From Protoeuglena noctilucae (lineage: Eukaryota): 64,000 bases of DNA. Position numbers and translations under genes: made by a program. The notes under the pieces are model-generated. The model was not told the DNA's origin. It did no database searches and was given only the letters and a program-made list of their open reading frames with translations. The DNA lies in the NCBI GenBank assembly GCA_958009085.1, contig OY253687.1, forward strand, positions 62,001-126,000, written 5' to 3'. Below are positions 3,301 through 29,257 of the stretch, in pieces (the stretch's first letter is position 1; the number at the start of each line of letters is the position of its first letter).

Positions 3301-3732
3301 CAATGAGACGATGCGATACTGGTGGGGGCGTTACCCAGTGGCTTAGAGGAGTGTGTTAACCACACATGCCTGCGTACGCCAATCCATATCGCGTCTTTAA
3401 CACGCCACAGTGCATCTCGCTCTTCTCCCACCGCACACATCGCATGCTCCCCCACCCACCCTGCGCCCGGCCCCCTCCCCGCAGACCCCCAGCCCATGGG
3501 CAAGGTGGGGCAGGTGTTCCACCCCAACCAAGACCGCATCGTGTCGGTGCGCGAGTGCGCTCGGTCGCAGGGCTTCCCCGACACCTTCCGCCTCTACGGC
3601 AACGTGCACAACAAGCACCGGCAGGTGGGCAACGCGGTGCCCGTGCCGCTGGCCAGGGCGCTGGGCAGGGAGCTGGTGCGGGCCGTGGTGGGCGAGGGCG
3701 AGGGCGAGGGCGAGGCCGCGGGCGGGCGCTGA
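305..3732 (+). CDS. MET1: DNA (cytosine-5) methyltransferase DNMT1/MET1, 3' part (BAH2 region plus catalytic domain); 5' end lies outside the window
   Basis: Exons ~305-531, 772-1340, 1485-1693, 1866-2394, 2617-2801, 3023-3227 and 3485-3732, all GT-AG. Motif [14 protein letters not shown], motif [14 protein letters not shown], motif VI LLENV, motif [30 protein letters not shown] and motif X RQVGNAVP are present. Confidence 0.96.
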
Positions 3733-4230
3733 GGAATCGCTGCGTGGCTGAGGCGGGCGCGGGGGGCAGGGACTGCGCGACGTAGGCAAAGAGCCGCCAC
3801 GCATGCATGGCCCGTTGAATGCAAAGGTGCAGCGGGTTGATCGGAACGCAGCCGCGGATTGAATCGAGCAACGCGCACTCCCGAAACCCGCATCTGAGTG
3901 CCGATCCGCGGATGGCTGCGCACGGAGCCCGCAGGCATGCCTCGTCGCCTGCCTTGGGTCTGATGGTGGCCGGGTGCTGACCGATCCCCGGTGCGCGTGC
4001 ACCTGTGTGCTACTTGACCATTGCACGTCATCCACGGATGCTCCGCGGAGCGCAGCCAGCTCGTCGCCGCCCGCCTTGCCCGAGTGCTGGTGAGCGCCCG
4101 TGCCAGAGAAGCGAGGGCGCGCGAGCCGAGAGGCGGAGAGGAGCGTGTGGGCATGGCACAGTGACAGTCGAGTACTCACAGAACTCGTCCGCAGCCGCAT
4201 TGAGGTTGTGAACCCGTCGCGGCGCCGATC
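3542..4230 (+). repeat. Left arm of long inverted duplication (partner 28561-29249)
   Basis: Base-by-base comparison with the reverse complement of 28561-29249 shows no indels. One mismatch at 3561, identity over 3562-4033, then about 20 mismatches in 4034-4230. Confidence 0.97.
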
Positions 4231-4640
4231 GCGCGTCTGGAGGTCTGCTAGCTGCGCCACTCCATGACGCACCGTCGGAGGCGAGGAGCGATGCCGTCGA
4301 CATGCCATGCAACTTCGCTTGCTTAGTACAACAGTTCAAACCTCCCGCAGCGTCAGCGTGAGCCTCGCCCGGTCCTTGGGAGCTCGCTGCAGTTGACGAG
4401 CTGGGCCACCTCGGCCTTCCACCCGCAGGCATCCGTGCGCTTGGCTGCGCATACTGTGGAGCCATGACGCCTTGTGCAAGAGCGGGTTCGTCTTAGAACA
4501 AGAGAAGGAGGTCGAGGGACGCGCCCGAGCCTGAGGTACATGGCAGCTTGGCAAAGGCTGCGCAGTGCAGTATATCGGGTCCGTTGGGGCGATGGAAGCT
4601 TGTTCATGCTACATGTGCGAGTGCTGTTACTGTACCGCAG

Positions 4641-5414
4641 GTCGACTTCGATGTCTTCTACCCCGCCGGCGAGAACGGAGACGGCTACGAGGACGCCGTG
4701 ATCGACGTGCTGGATGCGTCGGGCGCCGTGGCCCTGCGCATCCCCTGCCACCGCACCATCGTGTGCCGGGCGTCGGCGGTGCTGCGCGACCAGGACAGGC
4801 AGACGGACAGCGTGGTGGAGGGGCGGAAGCGGCTGGTGATGGACGACGCGCGGCTGGCGAGGGACGACCTGGACGACGCGCGGCGCATGGTGGGGGAGAT
4901 TTACCGGCAGTGCGGGCCTGGGCGCGGTCAGTTTTTGTTTGTGGGACACACGATGGTTGGGACCGTATTTAACACTGTTGTGTCGGCCTCTTCGCTGCTG
5001 GGCGCCTACAGGCAGGTGTACGAGCGCTGGGGCAACAGCCGTCTGCTGCGGGACAAGTACAATGTGCAGCTGCCATTCATCGAGGTGCACGACCTGGCGG
5101 CAGCGTACAGTGCGCCCAAGGGTGTGTCTCTCAGTGACGAAGCGCTCGACGACCTTGAGGAGATGCGCGTCGCAAGCTGGGTGGCACAGACGGTACCGGT
5201 GCAGGGCTTCTCGGTGCTCTCAACTTACGGTTTCCTTGCGCCTTCTATCGGGGCACTCATGGCCGATGACGGCATGGCCAAGCTGATGGAGGCGTCATAT
5301 GCCAACCTCAACACCGACTTGGAGCGCGCCGCGTGCTTTGCCGTGAGAATGCTGGCTAGGGTCAAGCGGCAGAGCCCAGATGATTATGCCAGAGCATTCC
5401 AAACGCCGAACTAG
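4641..5414 (+). CDS. BTB/POZ-like domain protein, paralog A (main exon; upstream exon uncertain)
   Basis: Acceptor ccgcag at 4640, then VDFDVFYP..DAVIDVLDASGAVALRIPCHRTIVCRASAVLR, resembling the BTB signature D-x-x-I...HR-x-[IV]-[LV]-x-x-x-S-x-x-[FL]. A clear paralog lies at 27362-28222. Confidence 0.55.
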   Translation, partial: VDFDVFYPAGENGDGYEDAVIDVLDASGAVALRIPCHRTIVCRASAVLRDQDRQTDSVVEGRKRLVMDDARLARDDLDDARRMVGEIYRQCGPGRGQFLFVGHTMVGTVFNTVVSASSLLGAYRQVYERWGNSRLLRDKYNVQLPFIEVHDLAAAYSAPKGVSLSDEALDDLEEMRVASWVAQTVPVQGFSVLSTYGFLAPSIGALMADDGMAKLMEASYANLNTDLERAACFAVRMLARVKRQSPDDYARAFQTPN

Positions 5415-5492
5415 GCAACGTTTTAAGGGCCGCGAAAGATCAAACACGGCAGACGCCATCTTTTGACCTTCGCGTCCCACCCGCCGCCCCTC

Positions 5493-8267
5493 TCAGCCTC
5501 CCAACAGCCCCAGCCGCAGCACCCCCTTCATCACGCGGCCGTTCTCCCCCTCAAACTCCACGGGTATGCCCTTGTCCGACATGCCCACCACCCTGCAAGG
5601 CAGAAAGGGCAACAAGCTGCCGTCACAGCAACATGACACGGCCGTCAGTAGCCCCGCCCCATCTCTGACGTCACTGCAACAGGCATGTCACCAGCTATAT
5701 TTCATCAATCTCCCCGCCCCGTCTCCCGGCCCTCACCCGTCCAGCCCCGTCCCGTTCCCCACCCCGTTTGCGGCCCCCGCCAGCGCCCGCCCCTCCATCA
5801 TCGGCGCATGCGCTGGCTTCATCCGCAGCAGCTCCGCCTCCAGCATGGCCGCCGTGATGGGCGGGATGTCGCTCAGCCGCACCCTGCGACCGCCTGCCCC
5901 CGAGGGATTCGAGGCACCGCCTTGGGACCCAGCAGCCCCACGGTCCCCTGCCCCCGATGCTGAGGCCTCTGCCATGCGTGCGGCAGCTGCGAGCAGGAGG
6001 CTTGAAAGTCTTCACACTTGCCACCTGTGCTCGCCAGGTGCAGCAGAGAGCCGGAAGTAAGAGACAGGCTGGACCATGGTGACCCACTAACGGCGGGCCG
6101 ACAGATGGAACGAGGGGGCTGTGGGGCGGGCTGGGCGGCAGCAACTGCGTCCCCGCTCACCCCTGGCGGCTTCCCGGCAGACCTGCGTCAGGTCAGATCC
6201 GGAGAAACCCTCGGTCATCTGTGCCACCTTCCGCAGCGCAGTGGCGGGGTCAGTCAGAATGGCACGGTCCACCGCCCCCGTGTCCGCGGCAGACGGGACG
6301 CGGCCGTCGGTGCGGGCGGCGTGGAATCCCCGCATGGCCGCCTCCTTGAGCTGCGGGGGTGGCAGCAGAGCACAGGGTGCGTCACACGAGCGGGGCAGTG
6401 GGTGAGGCGTGGCTGCGTGTCTCAGGTGTGCCGCAGCGGGTGAGCGTGTGCGCAGAGCTAAAGCAGCGTTTCCAACTCATCACACCACGGTCCTCCAACA
6501 CCTCCCCACACCAACTCCCATCTCTCACCAGCGTCTTGTAGAGGATCTCGATGCGCCCCCTCTCGTCCGGCTTCCCGATGTAGAATCGATCGGGGAATCG
6601 TCGCTTGACGGCTTCGTCGAGGTGGTCGGGGCGATTGGTGGCCGCCAGGACCACCACGCGCGTGTCCCGGGACGTGGTCATACCCTGCAGCGAGAGACGT
6701 GAGAAGGGCCGGGATGGAGAGCCATGTTGCGAGACGGATGAACAGCCACAGGGAAACGAGGCATGGCAAACGCTGTCTAAGATAGACTGGGGCAGAGTGA
6801 GAGTAAAATGGAGAAGTCGGTCCTGCTCAAACTTGCCCCCTCCCACTGCCTCCCAGTGCCCGCCCCCGCCCCTTCCACCGCCTCTTCTCACCTCCCAGTG
6901 CTGCATGAATTCCGTCTTATACGCCGTAATGAAGTCCTGCTCTGAGGCATGGCGCTGGCCCAGGAGGGCGTCGACCTCATCCACGAAAATGATGCTGGGC
7001 TGCGTGCGGCAAAGGCGTCCGTTACATTTCATGCAGACCCGATGACACGCCACATGAATGTCTCGGCGCCGCAACCACGCTGCTTCAGCACTGCTGCAAG
7101 CATGTGCACCGCTGCCACACGACAGCCCCCGCATCATGCATCACGCGCCTGCAGCTTCTTGGCCAGCGAGAAGACGGCCGCGACGAGCTTGTTCGTCTCC
7201 CCGAACCACTTGTTCTGCAGCGACGACGCCCGGACGTTGATGAACACCGCACCCGTCTCGACCGCCAGCGCCTGGGCCAGCATCGTCTTGCCGGTGCCCG
7301 GGGGCCCGTAGAGCAGAATACCGCGCGAGACCCCCAGGAGAGGCGTGCAGTAGACGTCCGGGCTCTCGAGAGGGCGCAGAATCTTGTCCCTCAGCTGGCC
7401 GATCTGGTCGGACAGGCCTCCCAGGTCGGCCAGGCTGCACGGGCGGAGGAGCGGGGCGAGTGAAGGGATCCGAGAAAAGCCAGAAGGCGCTCCGCAGACG
7501 TCCAAACACGCGAGCTGCATAGCCCGCGCACCGCACTCCGATCTCGTGAGGGTCCAGGACCTCCCCCACAACGTGGTGCTCGTGGCCGTCTAGGAGGACC
7601 GGAGGGCGGGTCGGGAACTTGCTCTGCAACCACCTGCGTTGCAAAGGGACACGGGCTTGTCATCGAGGCGCCGGGAGGAGCCGCGGGGGCGAGGCTGCAC
7701 TGCCCCGCCTGCTATGCCGGCCTCACGGGGAGCGAGCCGGCCGCGGCCTTGGCTTCTACGCAAGGCTCTTCTGCCAGCTCGCCTCTTCTTCTCCTCGACC
7801 TTCGCCTTGTCGAACGCGCTGGGATCGGGGATGCGTGACAGCAGCTTGTTCATGAGCCACCAGGAGCTCCCGATCCCTGGAGCGGCACGAATGGAGACGC
7901 CTTCGCGGGAAGTGGATGGCATAAGCAGCGGAGAGGGCATTGCGGCCGCTGAATCTCACCGAGCGCGATGTAGATGAGGTCCCCCCAGATGCCCGAAGGG
8001 GCGTCTTCCCGGGCCCTCCTGCGGACATCTCGGGGGCGCAGCGTCAGAGTGTATAGTCACAGGTCTGGGAATTTGCGCGGCCCAGCCGCGTTGCGATCCC
8101 AGCGTCGCCGCGGCAGCGATCCAAAGAGCCCGCGCTGCAACGGCTCGGTCGTGCCCCGAGGGACGCCTTAGGGCCGGTCGCGATGCAGCGGGGCGCGCAG
8201 AAGTCGCGAGGCACGGCACGCGCGAGCGAAGGCCGGGCCGTGACGCGCGATGGACGCACCTGGCCAT
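5493..8267 (-). CDS. MSP1/ATAD1-like AAA+ ATPase with N-terminal membrane anchor
   Basis: Spliced start MAR|RAREDAPSGIWGDLIYIAL|GIGSSWWLM. Walker A GILLYGPPGTGKT, NKWFGETNKLVAAVFSLAKKLQ|PSIIFVDEVD (Walker B), VLAATNRPDHLDEAVKRRF and TEGFSGSDL. Confidence 0.88.
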
Positions 8268-8587
8268 CGCGCAAGGCTTGGTCCTCCCAAAGCGATGCCC
8301 AGTCTTTTTCTCGCTTCTCTCACTCGTAAGTGGGGAACGCGAGATCGAGTGGCACGTGATTGATGAGCGGTGAGATGGGAAAGTCCACATTCTGGTCCAT
8401 TCTTTCGCTTCTTGCACACGCCAGAAGATGGCGCAGGATTCCGCGAAGCGCAGCGCGGCTGTGTATGCGCCATTGCCGAGACCTCGATGCCCGTGGACTG
8501 CACGTCCCAGGGGACCACTCGGCTCTCCTACCACACCCCAGCTCGCTCGCACACAAGAAGAGCGTCAACTTTGCACAGCTTTACAAG

Positions 8588-10493
8588 CTATGCCCCCACA
8601 CGCGAGAGCTCCACGGCGGCAGCACCACGCGCGGCCGCGCTCCTCCCCTCGGCCCTCGTCTCGGCCCGCGTCCCCAGCAGCGATGCCCCGCGTGGCCCCG
8701 AGGGTCGCGGCGCCCCAGGGGCCAGGCGGTCCGGGGAAGAGGAGGGCGCGGCGGCGCGGGGCAGGAGCGGCCGATGCTCGGCGTCCTGCGTGCAACAGCA
8801 AGAGTCAGGACGCATCACGCCATGGGTATGCGCGGCGGGGAGAGGACGTAGTCAGTGGTCGCAAGCGTGGCGTGTACAGACGTCACAGCCGTAAAGGAGT
8901 CATCGACACTGCAATTCTTCCTAGTCGCATACCGCGTCACATCGGCGTCACCTGCGTTGCGGGCCCCGCCTCCACGTCGGCCCCCTCGCGCGCCCGGGGA
9001 GACCCCGCGTTGCGACGGGGGGTGCTGCTGCGCTGGCGGCTCGAGCCCCCCGTGATGCCGGTGGCGCGCGCGAACCAGGCCTTGCCCGGGAAGGCGGACG
9101 GGTGCGCGCGGGTTGCTGCGCCGGGGTCGGCATCGATGCCCGGGGCGTGGGCGGCCGTAGTTGCTGCCGGCCTGGAGGCTGTGGATTACAGGAGCGAGCG
9201 AATTGTCATTGCTTTGTCATCGCAGATACAAGACAAGCCAGCGATTCCGACAAAGTCGGATGGGGCCTGCTCACGGCAAAAGGATGTGAGATGCATGTGT
9301 GCCTTACTCGTGAAGGTGCGGGAGGAGCACATTTGTCATCATCAGCCTATGGAAGATCGTACAACGCCACCATCGCTTTGCACCCACGCCCTCGCGCACT
9401 CGCCTGTCAGTCCCGCGAGCGGGATCTCCGCCATCTCCCACCGCATGCACGCGAACTCCGACACGAGCGCACACGCGACCAGGGACACCAGCGTCGAGGC
9501 CCACCAGAGACCGGCCGTGGGGAAGCCACCGTATATGCAGCATATGACGAAGTGGATGAGGTAGAATGTGGCTGCGGGGATGGGTAACACGAGGTCGCAA
9601 CGTGACTTGCTATGTGACTGCGAGCACCAGTCACCTTACTCTGCCACCCTGACCCTAGCCTCTTAACATCAGCCACCCCGCCTGCATGTCACGTCCCGCA
9701 CCTGTGAAGTCCAGGCACCGCTTGGCCCTCCGCACCGTCACGGCCACGACCCCAGCCAGCGCCAGGGCATGCGTCACGCCCACTGCCGCCAGACCCCACG
9801 CCAGGGACAGGGACCAGCCCGCCCCCTCCGCCAGGCGATGCGAGCCCGCACCCCGCAGTCGCCGCACTGTCGCAGCGACCAGCCCACGGTGACTCGAGGT
9901 CGCCTCTGACGTTCCGCAGCCATCAGAGGGATCAAGAGCCAGCCAACGCTCCTCCCCCGGTGCGCTCAGCACCCGTGCCCGGCTCCCCGCGCCCTGCTCC
10001 ACGCCGCCCCGGCCCCACGCACTCTCATCCCCTTTGGCAACACCCGCCCCTCCACCGTCCCCCGTGACCCCCGTGCACCCCGACGCGACCAGGTCACGCG
10101 GCCAATGCGACTCAGCCCCCGCGTGAGTGGACAGGTCAGGCCCGCCCGCAGCTGCCGACGTCCAGCCACGCAAGCCCCTGGGCGCCCCTCCGACCACGTT
10201 CCCGTACGCAGGGTACGACAGCGACATGGAGCGCGCGTCAAAGAGCCACGCTGCGGAGGTACGGGAACCCATGTGAGAGGGAGGATTTCAGAAAGCGGCA
10301 TCGCGCGCGGGGAGATGGCCCCTTGGGGCTGCCCAGCGTCGCGCCTGCCTGTGGGGGCCCCGAAGACGCCGCCATGGAAGGGCCCGAGGGTCGCGAGCAG
10401 CAGAAGCGCCCAGACAGCGTATCCGGCGAGCTGAATGAAGGTGATTTGGGCAATGATGAGGGCCGGGTCCCATTTCAGCGTCCCGTACAGCAT
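8588..10493 (-). CDS. SYS1: SYS1-like Golgi integral membrane protein
   Basis: WDPALIIAQI, VRRAKRCLDFT|ATFYLIHFVIC, FP..LWW and EFACMRWEMAEIPL match SYS1. TGTAA follows the stop (8581-8585, minus strand). Confidence 0.85.
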
Positions 10494-10939
10494 GGGCTGG
10501 GCCGCCCGGGATCCAAGAAAGCGATTCTGCGAATCTGCGGGACGCGATGACCTTACGAAGATGGAGAATACGCAATTCGGAGGAAATTATGCGCCGAGAG
10601 AATTGGAGGGCCACTGATGGACATAGCGATTGGCCCACGCTCAAAGCTGCTGGCAGAATGCACGACGCGGAGACGCTCCCAGTCAAGCTCGTGCAGTGGT
10701 GAGAGCTAGGTGCCCAGCGATGCCTCATCGCGCGACGCTCGGGCACACTGCAACTGGCGACGACGAGCGCCAGGTCAATTTCATCTTTGCAAGCGCCCAT
10801 GGCGCCAGCCAATACGCAGAAAGCTCCTTCTCTCTGTGCATAACACACCGTCGCTCCCCGCGTGGTCCGTTTGGTCTGTTCTTGCTTCTCGCTCATCCTC
10901 GTTCCCTAATTATGCGTATCACGCGGTTCTGCCAGCACC

Positions 10940-12003
10940 ATGAGCTCCGTTGACGATATCCTAGCGGAGGTGTCGAGGGAGCTCGGGCCCAAGCACGCCG
11001 CACCAGCTCCCAGGTGGGTCGCAAGATGCTTGCGGCGTTCTTGTTGCACAAATCCGGCTGAACGGTTTTCTTCGCCCCCGTAGCAACCAACCTTACCTTT
11101 GCAGTTCTGTGTTCCCGCAATTGCCGCTCAGGGCATCCATCCCGCGCTGTCGACTGCCAAATGCGACGTCCCTCGACTTGTCCGTGCGCAGGGCGCAGGG
11201 AGCCGCTGGAGTGGCCGCCTCCAAGCCTGCCAATCTGTCAGCTCCTCTTGGGCCGAAAGCGTTGCAGATCGCGTCCGTCTCGTCTGCCCCGGTGGGCCTT
11301 AGGTAGGCCCCGCGATCTGCTTGAGACGTCCGCATGCTCCCTGTACCCCGCGATTCGACGCCTCGCGTCCCTCTCGCAGTGCGAAAGTGTCAGAGGCGTC
11401 GATCCCGTCCCAACACAGCACCGTGGACAGCCTGCTTTCGGAGCTCGAGTCGGCTACGGGGCGAGGCCAGCAGGTGTCCTCCCACCGCGCGAGCGCAGCC
11501 AGCGTGTCCGGGGAGCGCCCTCCGGCCGCCGCGTTCCGACAGAAATGCGCGCCGGGGCCGGTGGTGGGCGGGACGGGCGCGCTTCGGGGCCTGAGTCGCG
11601 AGGGGGAGGCGTGCTGTGACCGACTCCGGTGAGCTTCGTATCGAGGAAAAAGAGGGTCCGTGGGCAGTAGCATGAGTGGCTTACTCTGCAATGCAGTCTG
11701 AGTGGCTTACTCTGCAAGGCATTCGTGCTTCCATATCGTGCTTTGACTCTCCCCTGGCGCGCCCGCAGGTGCACCAAGTGCGACCACCGGGTCGTGGAGC
11801 GGGCCGACTGCGCGTGGGACGCGTCCACGGATTATATATTCGTGCGAAACTACTACCCACACTGGGAGCAGCTGAGGGACCGGCTGTCGCGCAGGCCAGG
11901 CGCCGTGGCCTACACGTGCCAGTGCACCTGGGAGACGGTGGAGGGGACCGTCTACGTGGCGGACCTGGGGCACCGGTGGGTGTGCGGGGGGCACCAACCG
12001 TGA
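10940..12003 (+). CDS. CFAP418: CFAP418/C8orf37 (RMP domain) ciliary protein
   Basis: MSSVDDILAEV start; CDRLR|CTKCDHRV, W..STDYIFVRNYYP, AYTCQCTW and WVCGGH. Confidence 0.88.
11673..11717 (+). repeat. Short intronic tandem duplication (19-bp unit, 26-bp period)
   Basis: tgagtggcttactctgcaa at 11673-11691 and 11699-11717. Confidence 0.9.
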
Positions 12004-12236
12004 AACGGCTGGCGAAGTAAAAGACATGGCGACGGTTTTTCGTTGCACCTGATGACCTCTCTGCGCGGCGCGTGGCACTGCGGGGTACTGGCACCCCCGT
12101 GAGCGCTCCTCTAGCACCCCTGCCCCACTCCGCTGCCCATTTCCGACTTCCTGGCATTAAGGATACTCCCGTCGGCTTGGCTCGCTTGTATATAGAGCAG
12201 CTTGTTCTTTAATGGGCCTCAACGTTGCCGATTTCG

Positions 12237-13952
12237 ATGTCCCCGGTGGCCGTGGGGGCCCCAGGGCCCTCCGTCACCCCTGGTAGCAGTCCTTACATGG
12301 ACACGTTTGTCAGGGTGGGCGACCTGGTCGGCGCGCCGTTCGGCAGCCCAGCGGGGCCGTCTCCAAACGTGGGCACGCCCACGTTCTCTCCCCGCCGTGT
12401 CCTCTTCCCCGAAAACGCGACACAGCTCTTCCCGGTACGGCTTCTCGAAAGCGGTGCAGCAACTGGCGGCGTTACGGGGCCCTGAGTCGCGTCCCGGCGC
12501 CATTTGTTTTTCGCGGATAACTGTTCAAGCTGCAGCGGGCAGCCAGGGCTTCCTCTTGACGATATCGCGCAATGCGCATGCATTGTTATTTGCAGTCAGT
12601 CATATGCATGGCGCGCTTGCCCGAAGCGGCCCCCATTAACGCCAAACCCTGCACGTCTCTGGTCACAGGCAGCCCCTGTGGCGCGCGGGAGCCAGGACCG
12701 GCGGCTCACGCTCAACCACGATGAGGTCACGGCAGATGCCCGTCCCATTGCAGCTCCGACGCACGACGGGACGAAGCTGGTCTTCTTCAACGTCCGCCTC
12801 GCCGCGCCGCTGAAGCGCCCGCGGTCTGCCACCTCCGCAACCGTCCCCGCGGAGCCGACCCTTCGGCTCCTATGTGCAGCGACTGCGAGATACGACCGAT
12901 GCAGCGAGGCCTGGCTCCCGGAGGAGCCGGCGTTCCTCGCCAGCACACACGGCAAGCAGAACTGTGCTCTGCCGCGTGGCTGTCGCCTCGCCCGGGCCGC
13001 CCCGCTCACAATTCACCGACCCGCACCCGCAGACGTGAACGGCGCTGAGGCGATGGCTGCGCTCTGGCGCTACGCGAGCCAGGGCGTGGAGCAGGGTGGA
13101 TCGGTGGTGCTGGTGGCGCATTCACGATTTCACCTGGACGTGCTGGGGAGGATGGTGAGCATCCATGCATGTGTATCCATCTGCATACCTAGTGGCGCGT
13201 GCCGTATCGCCCTGGCTGCTCTCGAGCCTTGCCACTGCTCCCGCTTCACCATAGATAGCAACCCCGCGTGGTCTCTGCAGATGGCATCGGTTCATATTAG
13301 CGTCCCCACCCACCTCCGCCACCGCCTCTGGTTCCTCGACTCCCTCGACCTCGTCGATTCCGTCCGCTACGCCGTCCCCGTCAACCGCCGCACCCTCCCG
13401 AGCCTCCTTCGATTCTTCGGCATGCACCGTCCGCCTGGGGAGGAAGAGCTCAGAACCGAGCACGACCGCGCCGTGGCTCTCCGCAACCGCGTGCCCGGCG
13501 CGGCGGGGCGCCCAACGGAGGGCGGCGGACCCGGGAGCTCCCCAGGGGCCACGCCAGGTGCCGCCTCCCCCGTGGGGCACCGGTGCTCGTCGCGGTGCCC
13601 GGAGGACCTGGGCAGGTTGCTGCAGTACCGGCGCATGGTGCTGGAGCGGTACATGAACGACGAGGAGGTGCGGAGGACGGCGGCGGAGAGGGCGAGCCCG
13701 GGGGCGGCGGTGGGGGTGGACGCGGCGTGGGGCGCGCTGCGGGGTGCGGCGAACGACCTGGCGGCGCTGGCCGGCCCCGCGAGCCGCGACCTGCCGCGGG
13801 CGGTGGCGGCGGCGGCGGAGTTGGGGACGGCACTCGCCAAGTGGCAGGCGCGGGTGCGGTCCTATCGGCAGGAGTCGGGCGGGTTTGCGCTGCGGCTGTG
13901 CCGGCCGGTGGCGTTCCTCGGGCCGGGGACCCCGGCAGTTGTTAGTTCTTAG
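12237..13952 (+). CDS. DEDDh/DnaQ-like exonuclease-fold protein with degenerate catalytic residues
   Basis: LVFFNVRL (ExoI position), VVLVAHSRFHLDVL (ExoII), WFLDSLDL, TLPSLLRFFG and EHDRA occur in the DnaQ order. Introns ~12435-12668 and 13155-13280. Confidence 0.55.
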
Positions 13953-14262
13953 GTCGTTGAACTGCAGCATGGTACACGCGCTTTCCAAAGGCACGCAGCC
14001 GCCACGCTTTGGCTCACACACTCCTGACGCGCGCTGACTCAACCTAGGCAGACGGCGGGGCGGCCCGCACAGGAGCCGCGGCGCGACTCACGGGTGCGCA
14101 TTGTCTAGATCACCACTTTAATTTGCTCGTAATACCGCACTGTGGGTTTTTGGGCGATAGTAACGCGCGTGCAGCTCACGGCCACCGGCGCATCTTGTGC
14201 ACCCCTGCCGCCCGCATAGTCGCGCTTGGTTCTCTAGACAGCGTCACACACAAAGATCCAAA

Positions 14263-18379: not shown

Positions 18380-20822
18380 ATGATGCGGGCGAACTCCCTC
18401 GCGGGGCTCGGAGGCGCGCTGTCCAGCCCCTCATCTGGGCCGACATTGACTGGCCGCGGGAGCGGTTTCACGCGCCCCGGCCGCCTCGCTGCGACACTGA
18501 CCGCGCCCCTCGTGCGCACCTGGGACCAGGCTAACTCGGTGGGGGCCTGGGACACCTCGTATTTACGTTCAGAGCCCGGACACGGGGGGCATTGCGTCTC
18601 ATGTCCAAACCTTTGCGCCCAAGCTCCCTTCATGCGCTCCCTACCTCCCTCCGCATCATGTTCTGCCAGTGGTTCCACCCTGCCAGACCTGCCGACCTCT
18701 CCAGCCTCCCCCAACCTCATCCGGCTCCTGCTCCTGCCTGCAGCCCGGCCCTCCGTCCTCCGAAGGGTCCGCTGCCCCGCGTACTCGGGCTACCCGGGTC
18801 CGCAGGGCTACCCGGCGCCTTATGGCTCGAGCGTCGGCGGCTACAGCCAGGGCGGGTACGCGGGGGGCTACGGGACGTACGATCAGGGAACGTCGCGGAC
18901 AAGCGACCTCATGCGCGACATCGAGCGCATCATCGTGGAGAACATCCGGGGCCGCGGCAATCGCCGCTGGCAGGAGGTCCAGGGCGCCTTCGTGATGTTC
19001 CCGCCAGACAAGGTCGCCGCCAAGGTCAGTCATGTGCTGCCTCCCCGTGTGCCTGGCGATGCCTGCCACGTGCCCTGCGTCGATAGCCGCGGCGGCGGCC
19101 ACCCAGAGCCCTGAACACACCTCCTGTCGCGCTCTTGCAGGGTGTGGTGCACTTCGTGGGCGGTGCCTCTGTGGGTGCGGCACCCCAGTTCGCGTACAGC
19201 ACGCTTCTGGAGGCCCTGTCCTCCAAGGGCCTCGTCGTGATCGCCACACCGTACAACACGTCCTTCGACCACCTCCGCATCGCCGACGACTGCCACATGC
19301 TCTTTGACATGGCGGTCGGAGCCCTGGGCCCCGAGTACCAGGCGCTGCCCGTCTGGGGCGTCGGCCACTCCCTGGGCAGCCTCGTCCAGCTCCTCATCTC
19401 CGCGCGCTACCCCGGCTTCCCGCGCCGCGGCAACGGTGAGCGCCTGCGCAGGGGACGGCGAGCCTCGGCTCCTTGTGTCAGGGCGTGGCTGCAGTAATGG
19501 ACCTCTGCTCTTGTTCAGCGCACCAGCGACGCAGGATGCTCAACCTCTGAGACGTTATCATCGCGTCTCCCCCGCCTCTTTGATCGCAGTGCTCATGTCG
19601 TTCAACAACCGCCCAGCCAGCGACTCCATCCCCTTCCTCGCCCCGCTCCTCGCCCCTTCCGCGTCCCTTGCCGGCCCGCTGCTCCAGCAGGCGAGTCCTC
19701 TGTTCGCCATTCACAAGCTGAACACGACGCCTTCCCATCAAGCCCAGGCCTTGCGCTGTATATCGTCAAGACATTGAACGGCGCCCCTTGCCCCTTCCGC
19801 GCAGGTGGTGGAGTCGCCCTTCTCGCAGCCCGTCCAGGGCCTGCTGGACCAGATGCGCATGATGTCGCCCAGCATCGTGCGCCAGCTGCTGCCCCTGGTC
19901 GAGCAGCTGCAGCAGATGTACATGGACATGGCAAGGGGAACGCGCGAGTTCATCCCCGCCCCCGACGAGACCCACCGCATCATCCAGGCCTACTACCGCG
20001 TGCCCCGCAACATGCTCATCCGCTTCCGCGACGACAGCATCGACGAGTCGACTGACCTGGCCTCCATGCTGTCCTCCCGGTCGCCCGTGTCTGGCACGCT
20101 CGACCTCGCCATGAAGATCATGCCAGGGGGGCACGGGCGGCCCCTCGCCCAGTCCCTCGTCGAGGTCCCGCCCCAGGTGAGCCAAGGGCCAGCGAACCCT
20201 GACCCAGCCTGTGAACCAACCAAGAGCATGCTCCATGGCTTGTGTCTCATGACAACGCAAGCGCTCACGCAGTAGAGCCCAGTCGAGGGCATTGAACGGC
20301 CCACACCTTGACCATTTCCCTCACGTATCGTCTTCTACCCTTCCTGCGAACCCCAGGTGGCCCGCGTGGGGTCGCGGGTGGCCTCGTCGGGGGCAGAGCT
20401 CTTTGGCCGCGTGGCGCAGCTGGCGGCTGAGGCGGGGATGCCCTCGGGGCCGGGGACGGTCCTCAACACGGCCACGGGCATCGTCAACACGGTGGCGGAC
20501 ACGGTGGCGGTGTCGTCCGAGTCGTCCAACGCGGGGCGGTCGGGTGAGGCTCGCGTGCTGAGGCTGAGCGACACATGCTGCAGACAAACCGCACCCCCGT
20601 CACCCTAACCGCACCCATCTCATCCCTCTGCCCCACTTTCCCAATCTCCCAGTGCTGGCTCGTGACCTGGAGATGCTGGCGGATGAGATTGGTCACTGGA
20701 TGGGTGTGTCGGAGCGGGCGCCGGTGTTCAGCCCTTACCCCGCCGTGCCGCCTCCGCCCCGGGGCTACGCAGTCCGACAGCTGCCCTCCGCGCCCTCCCC
20801 GCCTGCCTACCGGACATACTGA
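18380..20822 (+). CDS. DUF1350 family alpha/beta-hydrolase-like protein, probably plastid-targeted
   Basis: GVVHFVGGASVGAAPQFAY, VIATPYNTSFDH, WGVGHSLGS, VLMSFNN, EFIPAPDET, NMLIRFRDDSIDES and PGGHGRPL. Confidence 0.88.
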
Positions 20823-21455
20823 GGCAGCGCCGCCCAAAGCGCGTGGGACAGGGGCGTGGCTGACCCCTCCCTCGTGCTGTCCCTCCAGCCACCCTGCAAC
20901 CCCCGTGGTGCAGAGCGCGGCTGCGTAGCCAGGCAGCTGCAGCTGCTCGCGCCTCAGCTCATAGATGCGCCACGGACGCCAGCTAGTGGCCATAGCAAGA
21001 GGCGGGGTATGCAGGCCCGCCCTTTGGCAGGCGGACGGCACACGTTCCCGCCTCTTTTCCCAGCAAGCGGTGGCTAGGGTGGTTGCGGCGGCCCTCTGCG
21101 CCAGCCAGACGCCTGGAAACTGGGATGGCACTGTAGCTCTCCGCCAGTTGCTCGTTTTGCGTTTCATCAAGTGCTGGCAGCACGTGGAAGCGTGTTTGCT
21201 TGACATACGAGGTCTGGAGGGCTCAGTTGTTGCAGTCCCTGCCCAGTGCTTCGACCGTCCACTAGCCTGCCCACGGTAGCGCACCCCTTGACTCTCGTGT
21301 TTACACGTTGGTAGACCCAAGCGCGGTCGCTCGTTCTGAGCGCCGCGCTCCGTTGAACTACAGCGCTCTCGCATTTGCAGCACGACATGTATGCAACAGC
21401 AGCGCCATCTCAAATGCACAACGTCAACCAGACCTCATAACCTGCTGCCCCTCCG

Positions 21456-22357
21456 CTACCCTTCTGGCAGCGGCCCCCGCCCCTGCCTCACAGCCCACAT
21501 CTCAGGTCTCTCCAGCTTGACCCACCGCGTCAGCCGCTGGGCCAACGCAGCGAGAGCCGCATCGGCAGCCGCACGCATCGCAAAGGGGCCCACCACAAAC
21601 GCCTCCACGATCGTCACCGGCAGCGCAGGCGTGTCGTCGCCATCTTCTGCCGAAGCGTGGCCCGACGGTGGCCTGAACACCTGCGCACAGGCGAGGTGGG
21701 ACTTGTCGTCATCGCCTCAGCGTAGTCGTGCATGACATGCAGGCTTCAAAGGCGCTCGGGCTGGCGTCCTCGGAGCGTCCCACGAGTGAACTCCCCATTC
21801 GTGACTCGCCTGCACTGCCCTGACCGTCACGGGGACCTGTTGGCTGAAAAGGCACCACTCCGCGCCACGCTTGACGACTCGGGACGTCACGCGCAGGCCC
21901 ATCGCGGACCAGGTCTCGACCGCCCGCGGACCAGCCATCTCGCACATCGTCACGTCCCGCACGAGGCTCTGGGCTTCGACGCCCGTGGCCACGCGATACC
22001 TGATCATCACCCACGCCTCATCGCCCACGGGACCCTCGCCCTCCTCGTCGTCGTCCTCCCGCAGCGTGCGTGTCAATCGATACGTCGGCTTCAAAAGCAT
22101 CTGCAAGGCGTGACGCACGCGGGCATCGGCACGACGATGCGGAGATTGGCTTGCAGTGCCGCAAAGGGTGCAGGACCCCAGCGCCGTCAATCATCCTGCG
22201 CGGCGGTGCATGCGCCCACCTTGAAATCTGGCTCTAGTGTGACCTCCTCGATGGCCAGGTCCCGCGGTGGGCGACCAGACGCGGCGGAGAGAGCGTCTCG
22301 CAAGCGGTCCACCTCGTCTCCATCCGGAGAAAGCACCCCCACCAGGCGACACTCCAT
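21456..22357 (-). CDS. MED18: Mediator subunit 18-like (CYTH fold)
   Basis: MECRLVGVL start, WSAMGLRVTSRVVKRG, VTVRAVQ|VFR, IVEAFV and LAQRLTRWVKLERP follow the plant MED18 pattern. Three exons. Confidence 0.65.
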
Positions 22358-22673
22358 GCCGACTGTGATACGACGATACCAAGCACAGAGGCAGTGGTTC
22401 CAATCAAATGCAGGCCTTCTCGATGGCGAGCTTTGATGCGCTGGAAGGTGCGCCCCTATGTAGACTCTTGTGCTATATCTAGCGAGGTGGAGATACATGC
22501 GCACGACGTGGACGCAAGATGTGATTGCTGGCGCGCTCGCCACGCTGAAATTGCATCGCCGGCGCCTCTGGCAGGGTCTCAACCCTCGTCGTCAGGGCGA
22601 AACAAGGGTTCCATTGTCCATCCGCGGGCTGTGTCCATCCGTGCGACATGCGTCGTACCTGGGGACGCTGGAG

Positions 22674-25268
22674 ATGGTGCAGACAGGAGTTGAAAAGGGC
22701 CGCGCAGCCCTGGTCACGCAGCTGGTGGCCGCACTCCGCGCTAGCGAGAGCAGGTGCGGACGCATGGCCATCCGATGCGCCCGATGAAGGCTGTGGATAT
22801 TACATGCGGAAGTATAGAATGCAGTCTTGCTTGCAGATCTTCCGAGGACCACGCGCTGGGCCGAGCCAGGGATGCGCTCGCGCAGCTCGCGATTGGCCCG
22901 ATGTGACCACGGAAGACCTGGCGAGCCTCGCCCAGGCGCTGTGCAATGCATCCCAGCAGAAGGCACTAATTGAGCACGACCTGGGCCCCACAGTCGTCGA
23001 GGTGCGCAGCCGCGCAGTGGCAACGACAGCGCGCGTCAAAGGTGTGACACCCCGTCGCATCTGCCGAAGCGTGTCGCCCGCAGAACCTCATGTCATTGGG
23101 AGGGCGGCACGGTCTGGCGGACGCGGCCGCGCTGGTCATGGCAGGCCTGACCCTGGGCCCCGTGGCGGCGCTCCCGGGCGACACGGCCTTTGTGGCCTGG
23201 TCTGCGGCTGCCTGGTCATCGGCAGCGGGAGACGGGCACGGCCCATTAGAAGCGAACCATGCTGCGGAGGGCGAGACGAGGTCAGGGAACGGTGCGGACC
23301 GTGTCGAGTCAGGGACGGGCGGCCAGCCGACGGTTGCCACGGCATCAACGGAGAACACCCGGTACAATGGCGATGCAGCGGCGCATGCGATCGCCGCCGA
23401 GGAGGACGACAGTGACTTTGAGTGGGAGACCATCGAAGTGGCGGGTCAGAACGTGCTCCGACAGAACCCACCGGCGTTGACTCCCCCCAACCCTCGCCGT
23501 GCCGTGCTGAGCCTGCCTGACGCATGCGCACTCGCATGTGCTGCTCTGGGCAAGTCGTCAGCCTTCCTGACGTCCTGTGCCTCGCCCGCGGCGTGGGAGG
23601 GTGGCAGCGGGACCCAGGAGGCGCCAGGGCTCTGGGCGCAGCTGCGGGGGGCCGCCGAGGGGGCGGTGGCGGCGAAGGAGTGCGGTGTAGAGCTGCTGAC
23701 ACGGTGAGAGGGACATACGAGGGTTGAGTGGTGACATTGACTGCGCCGGGTACGTGAGTGCTGTGGGGATATGTGAGTGGGTCTGGTTTCTAGTGAAGCA
23801 TCAACTCACCATACATACGACCTCCTTGCACCATCTTGCCACTCAATATAGTACGCACGATCTTTGCTCCTTGCCGCCCAGGGTGCTCACGGTGGCGGTG
23901 GACCGCGTGGGCCTGCAACCCAGCGAGGCCAAGCACGGCGCCTGCGTGTTCACCGCTGCTCTGCCGGCGCTGTCTCGCACATACGCAGACGGGGACGCTC
24001 CTGGCGGTTCCATCTGCCCCCCGTCGCAGGCAGCTGTGATGGGACCCCTTGCCTCGCTGCCCATCGGTGAGAAGTGCTGACTACTCGTTATGCATAGGGT
24101 GCACTGGCGACTGGCATGGTGACCGCAGCTGTCCTTGCATGACGTTCTCGCTTCTTGTGTCATTGTCGTTCGGGCCACCATGCTCGCTGCTCGCCACCGC
24201 AGCGTGCATCGCGCCCTTCACGTCTTCGCTCGACGCGTGCGCACCCCTGGCCATCGCCGCGCTGGATCGCGCGGCTCTGGCCCTGCGGCGAGGATCCGAG
24301 GCCGACGCACCGCACGTGGCGCATGCGTTGCGGGTAAGGGCGGGTGGCTTTGCATGCAATCTGCCACGACAGCTCTTGCTGTCTCGCATCGTGCACCCCC
24401 GTCCCTTGCCTCCCCGCAGGCTTGCTGCTCCGTGTTGTCGTCCTGGGTCTTGAGTCACGCTGGCGCCGGTATCAGCAGTTCTGACGCCGCCCAATCACCT
24501 CACGTGGCCCCCGCCATGCGTGCCATCACAGGCGTCCTCGCTGCCCTGCTGTCGAACCCCAGCCCGACTGACGGGACCGGCATGGTCCTCACAGACGTCT
24601 GTCAGCTCGTGGCCGTGCTGGCTTTCTCGGCTGACAACCGCGCTGCGTGGCTGGCGCGGGGCCTGACTGCGGCCGTCGATGGCGGCGTGGCACGGGTGGT
24701 GTGCGAGGTGGCATTGTGTGGGAGACACCACGCATCGCAAGAGGTGGCGAAGTACCCGGCAGCCTTGGCAGCCGTGCTGGCTGAGGCGCCGAGGTGGCGG
24801 GACATGGAGGGCGTGCGGGAGGCAGCATGGGCGGGCGTTGATACACCAGCCATGGGCAACAGGGAAGGGTCCGCGCTGGGTGGGAGACTCAAACAAGCGG
24901 CGCAGGTCGTCGAAGATGCGAGCACAGCGCCGGCGGACCGCCTGGGGGCTGTGAGGGAGCTGGAGGGGCTGCTGGAGTGGGCGAGCGTGGCGCAGCGGGC
25001 AGCGGCGGGGCGCCTGGCTTGGAGCGAAGACGCGGCGAAGGGCCTGCAGGCGGCGGGAGCGGCCCTGCGCAGGTGCAGTGCAGCTGGCGAGATCGAGGGC
25101 GGCGCGGCGGATGGCGAACCTGGGGGCGATGCCGATGAGGGGCGCAGGGAGCGCAACCGGGAGCGGGAGGCTCGGCGGCGCGCGGCTGCGGCGGTGCGGA
25201 TCGCGAAAGAGGCGCTCGGAGCGCCTGGCAGTGGCGGGTCTGGTCGTGGAGGGGCCAAGTCAGACTGA
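22674..25268 (+). CDS. Uncharacterised Ala-rich helical protein; start uncertain, possible frameshift near 22888
   Basis: Series of GC-rich exons bounded by GT..cag (22838, 23084, 23882, 24420), ending GGAKSD*. Confidence 0.5.
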
Positions 25269-25427
25269 GCACGATGGCGTGTGCTGCACCTAGAGCACGG
25301 TGGTCATACCCACCCTCCCGAGCGCTTCAAATGCGCCCATCTGCTTGGCGTGTGAGACAGTGTGTGCTTTTCTGCAAGGGAGAACCGAGACTTGCTCCAG
25401 GTACCGGAGAGCAGCAGCACAGGCAGC

Positions 25428-27170
25428 ATGTTCACGTCGGAAGGGTCACGCCATGGGGCGGGACTCCAGCCCCAAGCTGGCCGGGACTGGTGGCGTGATG
25501 ACCTGGACATGGACAGTGGCTCAGAGCTGTCGCTGCTCGCGGAGGACTTTTCGACCCAAGGTGTGCACCGCCAAGTGTGCTTCATGCTACTGTGCTTCGA
25601 GACGCTCCCTTGCCTCTGCTGGCCCAGTCGACTGCTGGGGCACCCCAGTGCATGTAAACACTATAACCACACCGCACTCGTGTGACCCTCGCCGCAGGTG
25701 GCGACCCAGTGCGCTTCCACCCAACGGCGGTCGCTGCGACCTACAACTGGCGGAACACGAGCGAGCCGACGATCGTGGTCCCTGGCCACCCGCCCGTCAT
25801 GAAGGACGTCATCCCAAGGACGCCTTTCAGGGTGAGCGGCGGGATCAGAAGCGGCCATAAGCGGCGCGGCGTCATTGTCATGGCATGGAGCACGGTGGGC
25901 GCTTATCGTGCTCAGCCGTGTCCGTTCGTACCTTGCCCTGCAGCTGGGCAAAGACAGCCAGGAGAACGCCGCTTTCGTGGACGAAAACGCCGCGCGCGTC
26001 CCGTCCGCGCCCCTGGACCCGCTGGTGGCCGCGATGCACGCCTTCCGCACGCGTGGGCCCATAACTGTGAGGGGTCCCATGCGGGCCCCTGGGGCCGCCG
26101 CCCCTGAGCTGCCGGTGCGCGTGGTGTCGGATCGCAACAACCTCCGCAAGCTCCTGGCCTTCGTGACGGGCGAGGGGTGGTACGACGACAAGCTGCCCCT
26201 GCGCATCGACGTCAGCGTGGTGGAGGGCGCTCTGGTCATGTGCCGGCGGGAGCCCAGCGCGCACGGGGATGCGTGGGCGGGGTACGGCCACTCCTTCGAG
26301 GAGCACCTGACGCAGCCATGCGCGAGTGGGAGGGACACGGCTGGCTACCGGCGCGTGGTGCGGGACGACTGGGGCCGGAGACGGGCGGCGGGCTGGGGCT
26401 GCTGGTGCGATGCGAGGTGGACGCGCTGAAGGCAACCAGTGATTCGGAGACTCACAAAACGACGAAGGCGGAGGGCGCAGACGACCTGGCGGCGGCGCTG
26501 GCAGGGCTGAGCGTGGACGGCAACGTGGCCGGTGCTGGCAGCAACAGCAGCGCAGGGGAGGTGTCGTCGGAGGTGGGAGTCGACTTTGGCGGGGAGTGGG
26601 CGCAGTCGGAGTGGGAGGCGGTGGAGATGGTGACGCGGTCGGGGCATCGGCCGCTGGACGTGGGGGAGAAGTGGTCCCAGATGGCCCTGTCCGGGACTGA
26701 CATGCTGGTGTACGGCAGGCACGAGCGGGGGACATTTCGCGAGGTCCAGACGAAGTCCTTGGAGGTGAGGGACCGGGGTGGAAGCGCCAGCCAAGCGACA
26801 ATCATGTCAGAGCGCGGAGCGTGATCATGCATGTTGACTGTGTCGCCACATGCTCGCGTGACGTGAAGGTGCCTGTGTTGACGCGGTTTTTTATTGTCAT
26901 GGACGCTCACGTTCCCTTCCCAACCTGACCTGTGTCACAGGAGATGGAGAGGGAGACCAAGGCATCGGTCAGGGACGGCATGCGTGGCCTGCTGGCCCTC
27001 CTGCAGCGGCTGGTGGAGCGCATCGGAAGCAGCGGACCCCAGGATCGGTTCGCGGTCGTGTGGAGGGCGCCTGGGGGGGCGCTGGAGCTCTTCCGTCTCC
27101 GCAAGGGCGGCGCTGGGCTGAGCGAGCCGGCCAGAGAGGCCCTGCGGTCCATGCTTGGGACCATGGGATG
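25428..27170 (+). pseudogene. Rai1/DXO-like PD-(D/E)XK nuclease-family gene with a frameshift at ~26370 (pseudogene or sequencing error)
   Basis: TYNW..PTIVVPGHPP, DENAAR.P..PLDPL, VVSDRNNLRKLL, LRIDV, GYGHSFE and GYRRVV in one frame. LLVRCEVDA, VEMVTR and WSQMALSGT..LVYGRH.RGTF follow in another frame, with no intron between. Confidence 0.7.
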
Positions 27171-27361
27171 AGAGCCACGAGTTGCTGGCGAGTTGGCATA
27201 GTAGCGTAGCCATGGGCCAGGGTGGCAGTAGCATCAGGTGTTTGGAGGCCAGAGCGTGGATGGCAGTCAGCGCTGCACCTTGTCGGGGGTCGGTGTACCC
27301 TAGCAGGGCGGCGACGCTTCAAAGGGGCTGGGGGAGCGAGTTTGGCTGGCTGGCAATGTGC

Positions 27362-28222
27362 TTACTTGGGCAGCAGCTCCGACACAATTAGACGCAGACC
27401 TATAATGAAGGTAAGTTTAAGGTCGCCCACTTTTTTTCCGCAAGTGCAAACCACACCTTCGACATTATTGAAGGTAAGCTGTAAAAGCTGTGAAAGTGCG
27501 TCGTCGACCCTTGACCTCACGGTCGCGAGTACCGCAGTCGAGAAGCATGCAATGCGCTCCGCGTCGCTCTGGCACTTGCCGTATGACTCGCCCAGGAGTT
27601 TGGCCACATTTGTGTCGGATGCAATGGCTGTCGTGGTCGGCAGGATAGGCTCCCCAGAGGTCCCCGAACACCCCTGCACCATCACCGTCTGCGCCACCCA
27701 GCTGGCGATGACCGCGTCCGCAGGGTCAGTCGCCTTCTTGCCACTGAAAGGCTTCGTGCTGTGCTTCTCGTAGGCGGCCACCAGATCGTGCACCTCCATG
27801 TAGAAGAGCATCACGCCGTACTTGTCCCGCAGGTAACGGCTGTTGCCCCACCGCTCATACACCCGCCTGTAGGCGTCCATCAGCGTAGAGGCTCCTTCAA
27901 CAGTGCAGAGTCTGACCTTGACCTCCGCGTTCTCCGTTCTCTAGACGTCAGTGCTGCCCGGCCCACACTGCCGGTAGATCTCCGCCACCATGCGCCGCGC
28001 GTCGTCCGGGTCGTCCCCCGCCATCACCAGCCGCTTCCGCCCCTCCACCACGCTGTCCGTCTGCCTGTCCTGGTTGCGCAGCACCGCCGACGCCCGGCAC
28101 ACGACAGTGCGGTGGCAGGCGATGCGCAGGGCCACGGCGCCCGACGCGTCCAGCACGTCGATCACGGCGTCCTCGTAGCCGTCTCCGCTCTCTCCGAGGG
28201 GGTAGAAGACATCGAAGTTGAC
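27362..28222 (-). pseudogene. BTB/POZ-like paralog B with in-frame premature TAG at 27941-27943; an upstream exon ends at 28321
   Basis: ORFs 27941-28231 and 27362-27880 are in the same frame and colinear with paralog A (YRQCGPG...AYRRVYERWGNSRYLRDKY..EVHDL..ASWVAQTV..AKL..SY..ER.ACF). Upstream donor acg|gtgaga is in phase. Confidence 0.7.
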
Positions 28223-28560
28223 CTGACGCATAGCGGTAGCACAGGCCAGGGTTGGTCGCGTGACCCGGGCCCACCGTCGATCTCAGTCCGACGCGGCCCA
28301 ATGCCGTCATCATATCTCACCGTCGCAGGCCCCACGGGATTATCGGTCAACTCGCTCTGTCCCTGCATGGCGACTTCCCGGCTGCCTCGCAGGAGCTGCG
28401 ACTGGTGGGGCAAAGCGACGCTCTCGCGCGGTGCGGAGCACATACCAAGGGTACTGGCGTTGCCTTGTATCATATCCAATATTGCAAACGCCTCACCGCG
28501 CGCTGTCGGCGTCGCGTCGCTCCGAGCGCGGCAAGGAAACAATGAGATGCGTGCGTGACC

Positions 28561-29249
28561 GATCGGCGCCGCGACGGGTCCACAGCCTCGATGCTGCTGC
28601 GCACGAGTTCTGTGAGTACTCAACCATCACTCTGCCACACCCGCACGCCCCTCTCCGCTTCTCGGCTCGCGCGCCCTCGCTTCCCTGACACGGGCGCCCA
28701 CCAGCACCCGGGCAAGGCGGGCAGCGACGAGCTGGCTGCGCTCCGCGGAGCATCCGCGGATGACGTGCAATGGTCAAGTAGCACACAGGTGCACGCGCAC
28801 CGGGGATCGGTCAGCACCCGGCCACCATCAGACCCAAGGCAGGCGACGAGGCATGCCTGCGGGCTCCGTGCGCAGCCATCCGCGGATCGGCACTCAGATG
28901 CGGGTTTCGGGAGTGCGCGTTGCTCGATTCAATCCGCGGCTGCGTTCCGATCAACCCGCTGCACCTTTGCATTCAACGGGCCATGCATGCGTGGCGGCTC
29001 TTTGCCTACGTCGCGCAGTCCCTGCCCCCCGCGCCCGCCTCAGCCACGCAGCGATTCCTCAGCGCCCGCCCGCGGCCTCGCCCTCGCCCTCGCCCTCGCC
29101 CACCACGGCCCGCACCAGCTCCCTGCCCAGCGCCCTGGCCAGCGGCACGGGCACCGCGTTGCCCACCTGCCGGTGCTTGTTGTGCACGTTGCCGTAGAGG
29201 CGGAAGGTGTCGGGGAAGCCCTGCGACCGGGCGCACTCGCGCACCGACA
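28561..29249 (-). repeat. Right arm of inverted duplication: copy of DNMT1 terminal exon fragment (motifs IX-X, stop) plus 3' flank
   Basis: Encodes [62 protein letters not shown] at 29059-29247, identical to the DNMT1 C-terminus. Confidence 0.97.
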
Positions 29250-29257
29250 GAGTATCT

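Follow-up and report, generated by a model that had tools for sequence, protein, structure and literature searches.

A layered inverted repeat between the end of a DNMT1 gene and two old inverted paralogs in Protoeuglena noctilucae

The repeat and the genes at its ends

The subject of this analysis is an inverted repeat in a 64,000-nucleotide stretch of the Protoeuglena noctilucae genome (GCA_958009085.1, contig OY253687.1), hereafter the window, which corresponds to C20:62001-126000 of an 887-kb contig in a genome of 26.3 Mb and 27 contigs; plain coordinates refer to the window and those prefixed C20 to the contig. One arm of the repeat begins in the last exon of a DNMT1 gene and the other next to the end of a WD40 gene, and each runs into a member of a small gene family, termed here paralogs A and B. 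The locus is real, well supported and ordinary in kind, and belongs to the known class of gene-converted inverted paralogs. By self-BLAST and direct comparison, 3542-4231 and the reverse complement of 28560-29249 align without a gap along 690 nt; of their 21 mismatches, one lies at 3561, none in the 472 nt of 3562-4033 and 20 in 4034-4231. A preliminary description of this DNA had reported a gap-free repeat of 689 bp with a 472-nt perfect core; all of this stands except the length, which is one base greater. Two real copies in inverted orientation are thus present, and the genome-wide search for further copies that the same description proposed returned exactly these two in the 26.3 Mb. The core is also the longest exact inverted repeat of the 887-kb contig, the runner-up being 92 nt long.

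The first arm (arm A, 3542..4231, plus strand), the donor in the history proposed below, comprises the DNMT1 tail, a 305-nt spacer, and exon 1 with the start of the intron of paralog A. Its perfect core (3562..4033, plus strand) reaches to within 4 nt of the putative start codon of paralog A, and the adjoining layer of 90% identity (4034..4231, plus strand), in which 20 of 198 positions differ, 17 of them by transitions, holds the putative exon 1. The gene at this arm is a DNMT1-type C5 methyltransferase, judging from the catalytic domain distributed across its exons (Pfam PF00145, DNA_methylase) and from the collinearity of these exons with the 1642-aa intronless DNMT1 open reading frame (ORF) of a relative (L026). 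It is intact and spans ~C20:55.8-65.7 kb, beginning upstream of the window, and its last exon occupies 3485..3732 on the plus strand. The outer edge of the repeat lies within this exon, as had been described earlier, at 57 nt from the exon's start, so that the copied DNMT1 piece in arm B consists of the last 63 codons only, and has no promoter. The tail is included in the repeat because the end of DNMT1 sits so near the start of paralog A, the distance to its putative ATG being the 305 nt of the spacer.

Several features of DNMT1 and its surroundings stand apart from the repeat. Several of its introns hold a degenerate tandem copy of the adjacent exon end and splice site, 84-123 nt away where measured (window 192-332, 489-665 and 2757-2889; C20:59.3-59.4, 59.96-60.14 and 61.55-61.74 kb; L008, L009). 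Short tandem copies of such spacing are clustered, with 18 of the 91 on the contig lying within 40-60 kb and 8 of these 18 carrying a donor motif, and the intronic copies are possibly the footprint of intron growth by local duplication. In the relative, DNMT1 is a single intronless ORF (L026:5278-10206); its counterpart in the window is interrupted by numerous long introns. In DNMT1 and some of its neighbors (window 1-3484, C20:48-66 kb) the introns are long, G/T-rich in their first half and C/A/T-rich in their second, and CpG observed/expected (o/e) ratios are 0.65-0.78, against ~1.0 in the compact genes after window position 4000; patches of this kind recur at ~C20:340-380 kb and 720-860 kb. 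The idea of a chromatin-domain boundary at arm A found no support. Three further C5-methyltransferase ORFs are found at C21:426.4 kb, C6:60.8 kb and C23:379.7 kb (L015-L017) as open frames of 366-400 aa, each outscoring every single DNMT1 exon on PF00145.

The second arm (arm B, 28560..29249, minus strand), the proposed recipient, contains the perfect core at 28758-29229 and the C-terminal DNMT1 fragment at 29059-29249. Beyond it lies a junction spacer of 8 nt (29250..29257, minus strand) without similarity to the flank of arm A, and then the last exon of the WD40 gene (29258..29391, minus strand), with the stop codon TGA at 29258-29260 and the rest of the gene reaching ~32.2 kb. The WD40 C-terminus is complete, in that residues 2-40 of the 43 encoded by this exon align with residues 669-708 of a 713-aa homolog (P0008). 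A fused frame of 87 codons, joining an alternative WD40 frame to the DNMT1 tail from an ATG at 29325, was considered and found to be without support. In the RNA run X9 a core contig breaks off precisely at 28758, which hints at transcription of both arms with transcript ends near this point; among the X9 pieces listed, to which 53 further pieces are to be added, no RNA contig crosses 29249/29250. TTGAA is the most enriched 5-mer in the 300 nt following 51 predicted stops on the contig (24 against 6.3 expected and 14 on the opposite strand), whereas TGTAA is present after just 3 of the 51. TTGAA also occurs within the core and over the WD40 stop, and may be the polyadenylation signal of this lineage, a lead drawn from an unvalidated gene set.

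Paralogs A and B belong to a family with five genome matches, all on this contig, namely A, B and three tandem copies (g1 to g3) at 36-39 kb. The main exon of A (4641..5414, plus strand) is open over 257 codons, with a BTB-like motif that is unconfirmed, and that of B (27362..28222, minus strand) has an in-frame TAG at 27948-27950, in a region where an RNA-library contig (27827-27983) has the same letters. Rescue of this TAG by an alternative genetic code was rejected, as TAG terminates 15 of 51 predicted genes and paralog A itself. The tandem cluster (C20:36.2-39.5 kb; L006, L012-L014) likewise has one short copy (g1) and one with an early in-frame TAG (g3), which together with the premature stop in B are signs of birth-and-death evolution. 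In all pairs of the family the first ~90 main-exon codons are much more conserved than the remainder. Upstream of the main exon, 4038-4137 aligns with C20:36650-36748 upstream of g2, with none of 200 shuffles doing as well, and the aligned stretches have an ATG and a splice-donor motif in common; hence 4038-4089 is the putative exon 1 of paralog A, with its ATG at 4038 and its donor at 4090. Over the following 4138-4231 A and B are alike (13 of 94 positions differ) and have no match to g2. One metatranscriptome, a population sample, yielded contigs with A-type letters and contigs with B-type letters.

The nature of the encoded proteins was probed by several routes. Pfam returned no match for six family members at E-values up to 10, a search of the ESM Atlas gave no match, and the sequence search of the PDB gave only weak matches (best E 0.04). 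The AlphaFold model has a pLDDT of 47 and a strand-strand-helix-helix order at its N-terminus; the top four Foldseek rows are KBTBD2 complexes, but at a non-significant E of 0.3, and a wide fold search reached a best Z of 5.9 on generic helices while hardly covering residues 1-74. Among 1.84 billion representatives the family found six matches, five being the organism's own copies and one a distant protein (P0007, E 3e-5, no Pfam match). Thus, while the homology between the two genes that had been called BTB-like does resume beyond the arms, their membership among the BTB/POZ proteins is at present a motif-level guess.

Layers of identity and their support in the assembly

From the outside inward the identity between the two sides falls into layers: 1 mismatch in 20 nt, 0 in 472, 20 in 198, then an intron that cannot be aligned, then 93% nucleotide identity over the first 95 main-exon codons, and 58% thereafter. 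A clean run of 472 nt amid 21 randomly placed mismatches was not seen in any of 200,000 permutations (approximate P 3e-10), and core and inner layer differ in their share of mismatches (0/472 vs 20/198; Fisher P 1e-11). The intron stretch, ~390 nt in A and ~320 nt in B, aligns no better than shuffled sequence, of which 112 in 200 score as high, and homology resumes at ~4621-4640 and 28242-28222, much as the preliminary description had it. At four-fold degenerate sites 4 of 45 differ in the first 95 main-exon codons as against 19 of 40 distally, which amounts to ~0.75 substitutions per site in the distal part. This layering, with 4/45 and 19/40 at four-fold sites and 0/472 in the core, indicates that A and B are old and that parts of them were homogenized later. 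The mosaic extends to silent and non-coding sites, with a tract much more similar than the age of the paralogs would lead one to expect. The earlier suggestion of an old inverted duplication overlain by recent conversion or extension is supported, and each arm represents the 5' end of one of the two old paralogs, which lie inverted to each other and belong to a lineage-restricted family of five copies.

Two edges of the repeat are informative with regard to relative age. A single mismatch in the outer 20 nt has a probability of 5e-5 at the 47.5% divergence of the old layer, with which it is therefore incompatible, and the outer junction is younger than the split of A and B. The inner step in identity, at 4033/4034, precedes by 4 nt the ATG where similarity to a third paralog sets in. 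The non-coding core itself has no match in the upstream regions of the three tandem paralogs, where shuffles reached the score in 19, 109 and 48 of 200 cases.

Since the sharp outer junction might have been a misassembly at 29249/29250, as the preliminary description had cautioned, we compared contigs (rather than reads) from 4 of the 23 runs listed for the stretch over 25500-31500. The junction is spanned without a letter difference in three of the four, by a contig of X1 (29200-30830), a 45.8-kb contig of X5 and a contig of X7 (28724-29507). Depth over the core, a second check that had been called for, is 464 against 236-254 at single-copy positions in X1 and 26 against 14-15 in X5, i.e. about double, while both junctions are at about single-copy depth in these runs; in X7 the corresponding ~6 against 4-5 is too shallow for a copy-number reading. 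X1 and X5 each contain both sets of alleles of the 90% layer, and for the arm-B core contigs of X1, X5 and X7 no departure from the reference is listed. The sole N gap of the window (45131-45330) lies outside both arms, and none occurs from C20:23067 to C20:107130. It is hence extremely improbable that the locus is an artefact, whether a false duplication or a consensus collapse that gives the core its apparent identity. Such an artefact would gain some room from the fact that X1 probably stems from the assembly's own project and X5 is flagged as a possible source (X5 and X7 being from one study), and from the tendency of k-mer contigs to conceal isolated differences, the known difference at 28757 being absent among the rows shown. 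Against it stand the bridged junction, the continuation of the core on the DNMT1 side, which is a loose end in X1, the doubled depth with both allele sets, and the lack of a nearby N gap.

A few contigs mix the two alleles: one of X7 (28021-28710), one of X9 (28007-28161) and the protein P0006 have A-type letters at 28075-28148 amid B-type sequence. We read them as merged bubbles of the assembly graph, as on either side of this stretch A and B agree for more than 31 nt and the depths are 5-7; real recombinants are opposed by X5, which has the true B allele at single-copy depth. Being better explained in this way, these contigs were counted neither for conversion polymorphism nor for inversion. 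The orientation of the block cannot be phased across 472 identical bases by run contigs, which stop at the core or stray within it, a caveat that applies equally to a 784-nt contig of X7 that covers the whole core and matches the reference orientation.

Origin of the repeat

Ordinary recombination between homologous sequences very probably made this repeat, whichever order its events took; the layers and junctions are observed, and from them the order of events and the repair pathway are inferred. Our preferred account, with a chance of being right that is barely better than even, is that the repeat is a by-product of ectopic homologous recombination between the two old inverted paralogs, with a one-step outward extension as the last event. 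According to it the family would have first expanded on this chromosome arm, as the divergence of its members shows, placing A after DNMT1 and B, inverted, ~23 kb off after the WD40 gene. Conversion would then have homogenized exon 1 with the start of the intron, as well as the beginning of the main exon, regions that today differ by 7-10%, leaving the mosaic identity. Finally, a recent repair event at B would have invaded A via the exon-1 homology and copied ~490 nt outward through the spacer into the last exon of DNMT1, whereupon the copied end would have been attached, with no homology involved, at a point 8 nt beyond the stop codon of the WD40 gene. The former upstream DNA of B and the former 3' flank of the WD40 gene would both have been replaced in the process. 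One-sided invasion with synthesis-dependent repair characteristically yields one homologous end and one non-homologous junction, with copying beyond the shared homology. Such one-sided repair is said to have been described by Puchta in 1998 from induced breaks in plant cells; the likeness lies in the pairing of one homologous with one non-homologous junction, which at the present locus is read from layers of sequence.

The same process could have run in another order, in which a 690-nt unit was duplicated at the time of the 10% layer and its center was repeatedly rehomogenized by conversion, with an occasional crossover. This alternative is quite possible, though we would not expect it, and accounts for the observations nearly as well as a one-step extension. 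It would explain why the perfect center is flanked by the mismatch at 3561 on the outside and by the 10% layer on the inside; the mosaic identity of the main exon shows that conversion has been repeated, and there are precedents in yeast (PMC9731477) and human (PMC3961182). On the other hand, it does not account for the end of the tract at 4 nt ahead of the shared ATG, the repeat is far shorter than the 4.2 kb given for the yeast case in the former report, and concerted change is not evident, given the absence of listed differences in the arm-B core contigs of three runs. If crossovers did accompany it, a slow and unregulated inversion polymorphism like that of Saccharomyces might be the outcome.

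A third possibility does away with homology: a replication template switch or a staggered-break inversion might have set the DNMT1 tail and spacer beside B by chance. The sharp outer junction would suit such an event, as would a 630-nt direct duplicate with abrupt ends elsewhere on the contig. We nevertheless regard it as improbable, because the copy runs in register and without gaps into the pre-existing A/B homology of 4034-4231, as expected of homologous invasion and unlikely for a copy that landed at random. The duplicate just mentioned (C20:485916-486545 and 491731-492360; 99.5% identity, 492-nt exact core) is a direct-orientation analogue of the present repeat. This duplicate starts within what looks by eye like a tRNA gene and terminates in the following gene, next to an older duplication of 87-93% identity. 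It shows that the contig has recent copies of less than a kilobase at other places too. The contig also has a tandem array at C20:281.9-289.9 kb with a period of 2267 nt and 98-99% identity.

Several points weigh against a one-step extension as the last event. The single mismatch in the outer 20 nt is also compatible with 10% divergence (P 0.39), as the other order of events predicts, and the coincidence of the identity step with the ATG was spotted after the fact. The match of 4138-4231 between A and B alone requires an intermediate event in any case, and the outer junction might already have arisen in it. The order of events is drawn from one genome, and the repeat is in no outgroup. Moreover, the layout with its duplicated C-terminal gene fragment resembles the mating-type switch of the yeast Ogataea, and the absence of a recombinase is weak evidence, since that switch operates without one too (PMC4238957).

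Invertibility and comparison with known systems

The block between the two main exons (5415..27361) encodes an AAA ATPase (minus strand), SYS1 (minus), an RMP-family gene (plus), a peroxidase (minus), a DUF1350 protein (plus) and genes without a Pfam match; a block of about 11 genes had been described, and codon-model segments point to about ten between the paralogs. Rfam (window 1-33000) and tRNA scans were empty. A crossover in the 472-nt core could invert this 24-kb block. From the geometry, such an inversion is predicted to alter neither the DNMT1 nor the WD40 ORF, and each paralog would keep the same 476 nt ahead of it; with no ORF or proximal promoter altered, it would probably be near neutral. 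The earlier statement that DNMT1 would come through intact is upheld, the 3561 difference being synonymous in DNMT1 and outside the core. The further proposal of a working invertible segment anchored on a methyltransferase finds no support, as no second orientation was seen among contigs unable to phase it and just 63 codons of DNMT1 were copied. No recombinase had been noticed in the window, and the whole genome similarly gave no candidate tyrosine or serine recombinase for PF00589 and PF00239, though introns or divergence could hide one; the profile controls were positive in 14 (PF00589) and 12 (PF00239) of 14 genomes. The locus therefore does not qualify as a site-specific invertase system.

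The closest known system appears to be the flip/flop (FF) region of Saccharomyces chromosome XIV, with the mating-type (MAT) switch of Ogataea being similar in layout only. The FF region is a 24-kb block between 4.2-kb repeats that hold whole genes, conserved in eight species with both orientations shown (Salzberg et al. 2022, PMC9731477); not one flip was recorded over roughly 53,800 mitoses and 950 meioses, and conversion of the repeats during non-allelic recombination is proposed, with inversion as a by-product (PMC9731477, Discussion). By this account both loci have a 24-kb multi-gene block between inverted repeats of lineage-restricted, fast-evolving paralogs that conversion homogenizes; the present one differs in its 0.69-kb repeats of gene ends only, its single genotype known in the reference orientation and its one broken paralog. 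A human parallel, HsInv0209, has 782 bp at 99.9% identity within inverted duplications of 94%, the likely site of crossover (Aguado et al. 2014, PMC3961182). There too, a short near-perfect tract lies inside moderate-identity inverted duplications and exchanges leave genes intact, with the difference that the human cases are genotyped polymorphisms in larger duplications and the locus here is known from one genotype.

In the Ogataea (Hansenula) polymorpha mating-type locus, the C-terminal half of SLA2 occurs in inverted copies ~18 kb apart, within repeats of more than 2 kb; its genes regulate mating type, expression is repressed at one of the two positions, and starvation triggers the inversion (Maekawa and Kaneko 2014, PMC4238957). 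Shared with the present locus are an inverted C-terminal piece of a neighboring gene (SLA2 there, DNMT1 here) 18-24 kb away, paralogs just inside it, and the lack of a detected site-specific recombinase; the long repeats, regulator genes, repressed position and starvation induction are features of Ogataea, and the likeness is one of layout. By analogy, inversion in the core might be a programmed switch that sets A or B beside DNMT1 and so changes which is expressed. That every ORF survives inversion would agree with this, as would the paralogs ~20 kb apart beside an inverted C-terminal copy, just as in that yeast, and the CpG o/e of DNMT1, which at 0.65-0.78 is below the 0.91-1.05 of the enclosed block. 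Yet we think such a switch very unlikely. The repeat is 0.69 kb rather than more than 2 kb (PMC4238957), the premature stops in B and g3 and the short g1 make a birth-and-death pattern, and none of the six genome matches to RWP-RK lies on this contig. Low CpG is patchy by gene upstream (1.06 at C20:54-57 kb), forming no silent domain, and a second orientation was not seen, the contigs being unable to phase the core. A version suited to a green alga, with the DNMT1 tail as the recombination arm and either the full-length or the truncated BTB-like orphan expressed beside DNMT1, strikes us as equally far-fetched; a limited literature search, that on structural variation in Chlamydomonas included, turned up no nuclear switch of this kind among green algae. 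Somewhat more likely, though still improbable, is a milder form in which the block inverts recurrently and without regulation, as a polymorphism of wild populations.

Comparison with relatives, which had also been proposed, went part of the way. The stretch itself is present in marine metagenomes, which together with the RWP-RK genes, a glucan-dikinase-like match and TTAGGG telomere repeats suggests a marine green alga. A scan of metagenomes for the pattern returned two loci, both from distant relatives. In one (L026) the order upstream of DNMT1 is kept and the downstream gene, which we take to be glucan-dikinase-like, is different. As the matches of this gene in the present genome lie on C3 and C6, L026 does not orient the block; the other relative (L025) is too short for a comparison of gene order.

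As to its wider meaning, the locus suggests a small case of regulatory borrowing, in that the 3' flank of the WD40 gene has apparently been replaced by that of DNMT1. It also illustrates, in clearly separable layers, how ectopic gene conversion can act in a compact algal genome, and marks a site at which 24 kb could become inverted with no gene damaged. Its significance would be much greater if both orientations occurred in one clone or under a stimulus.

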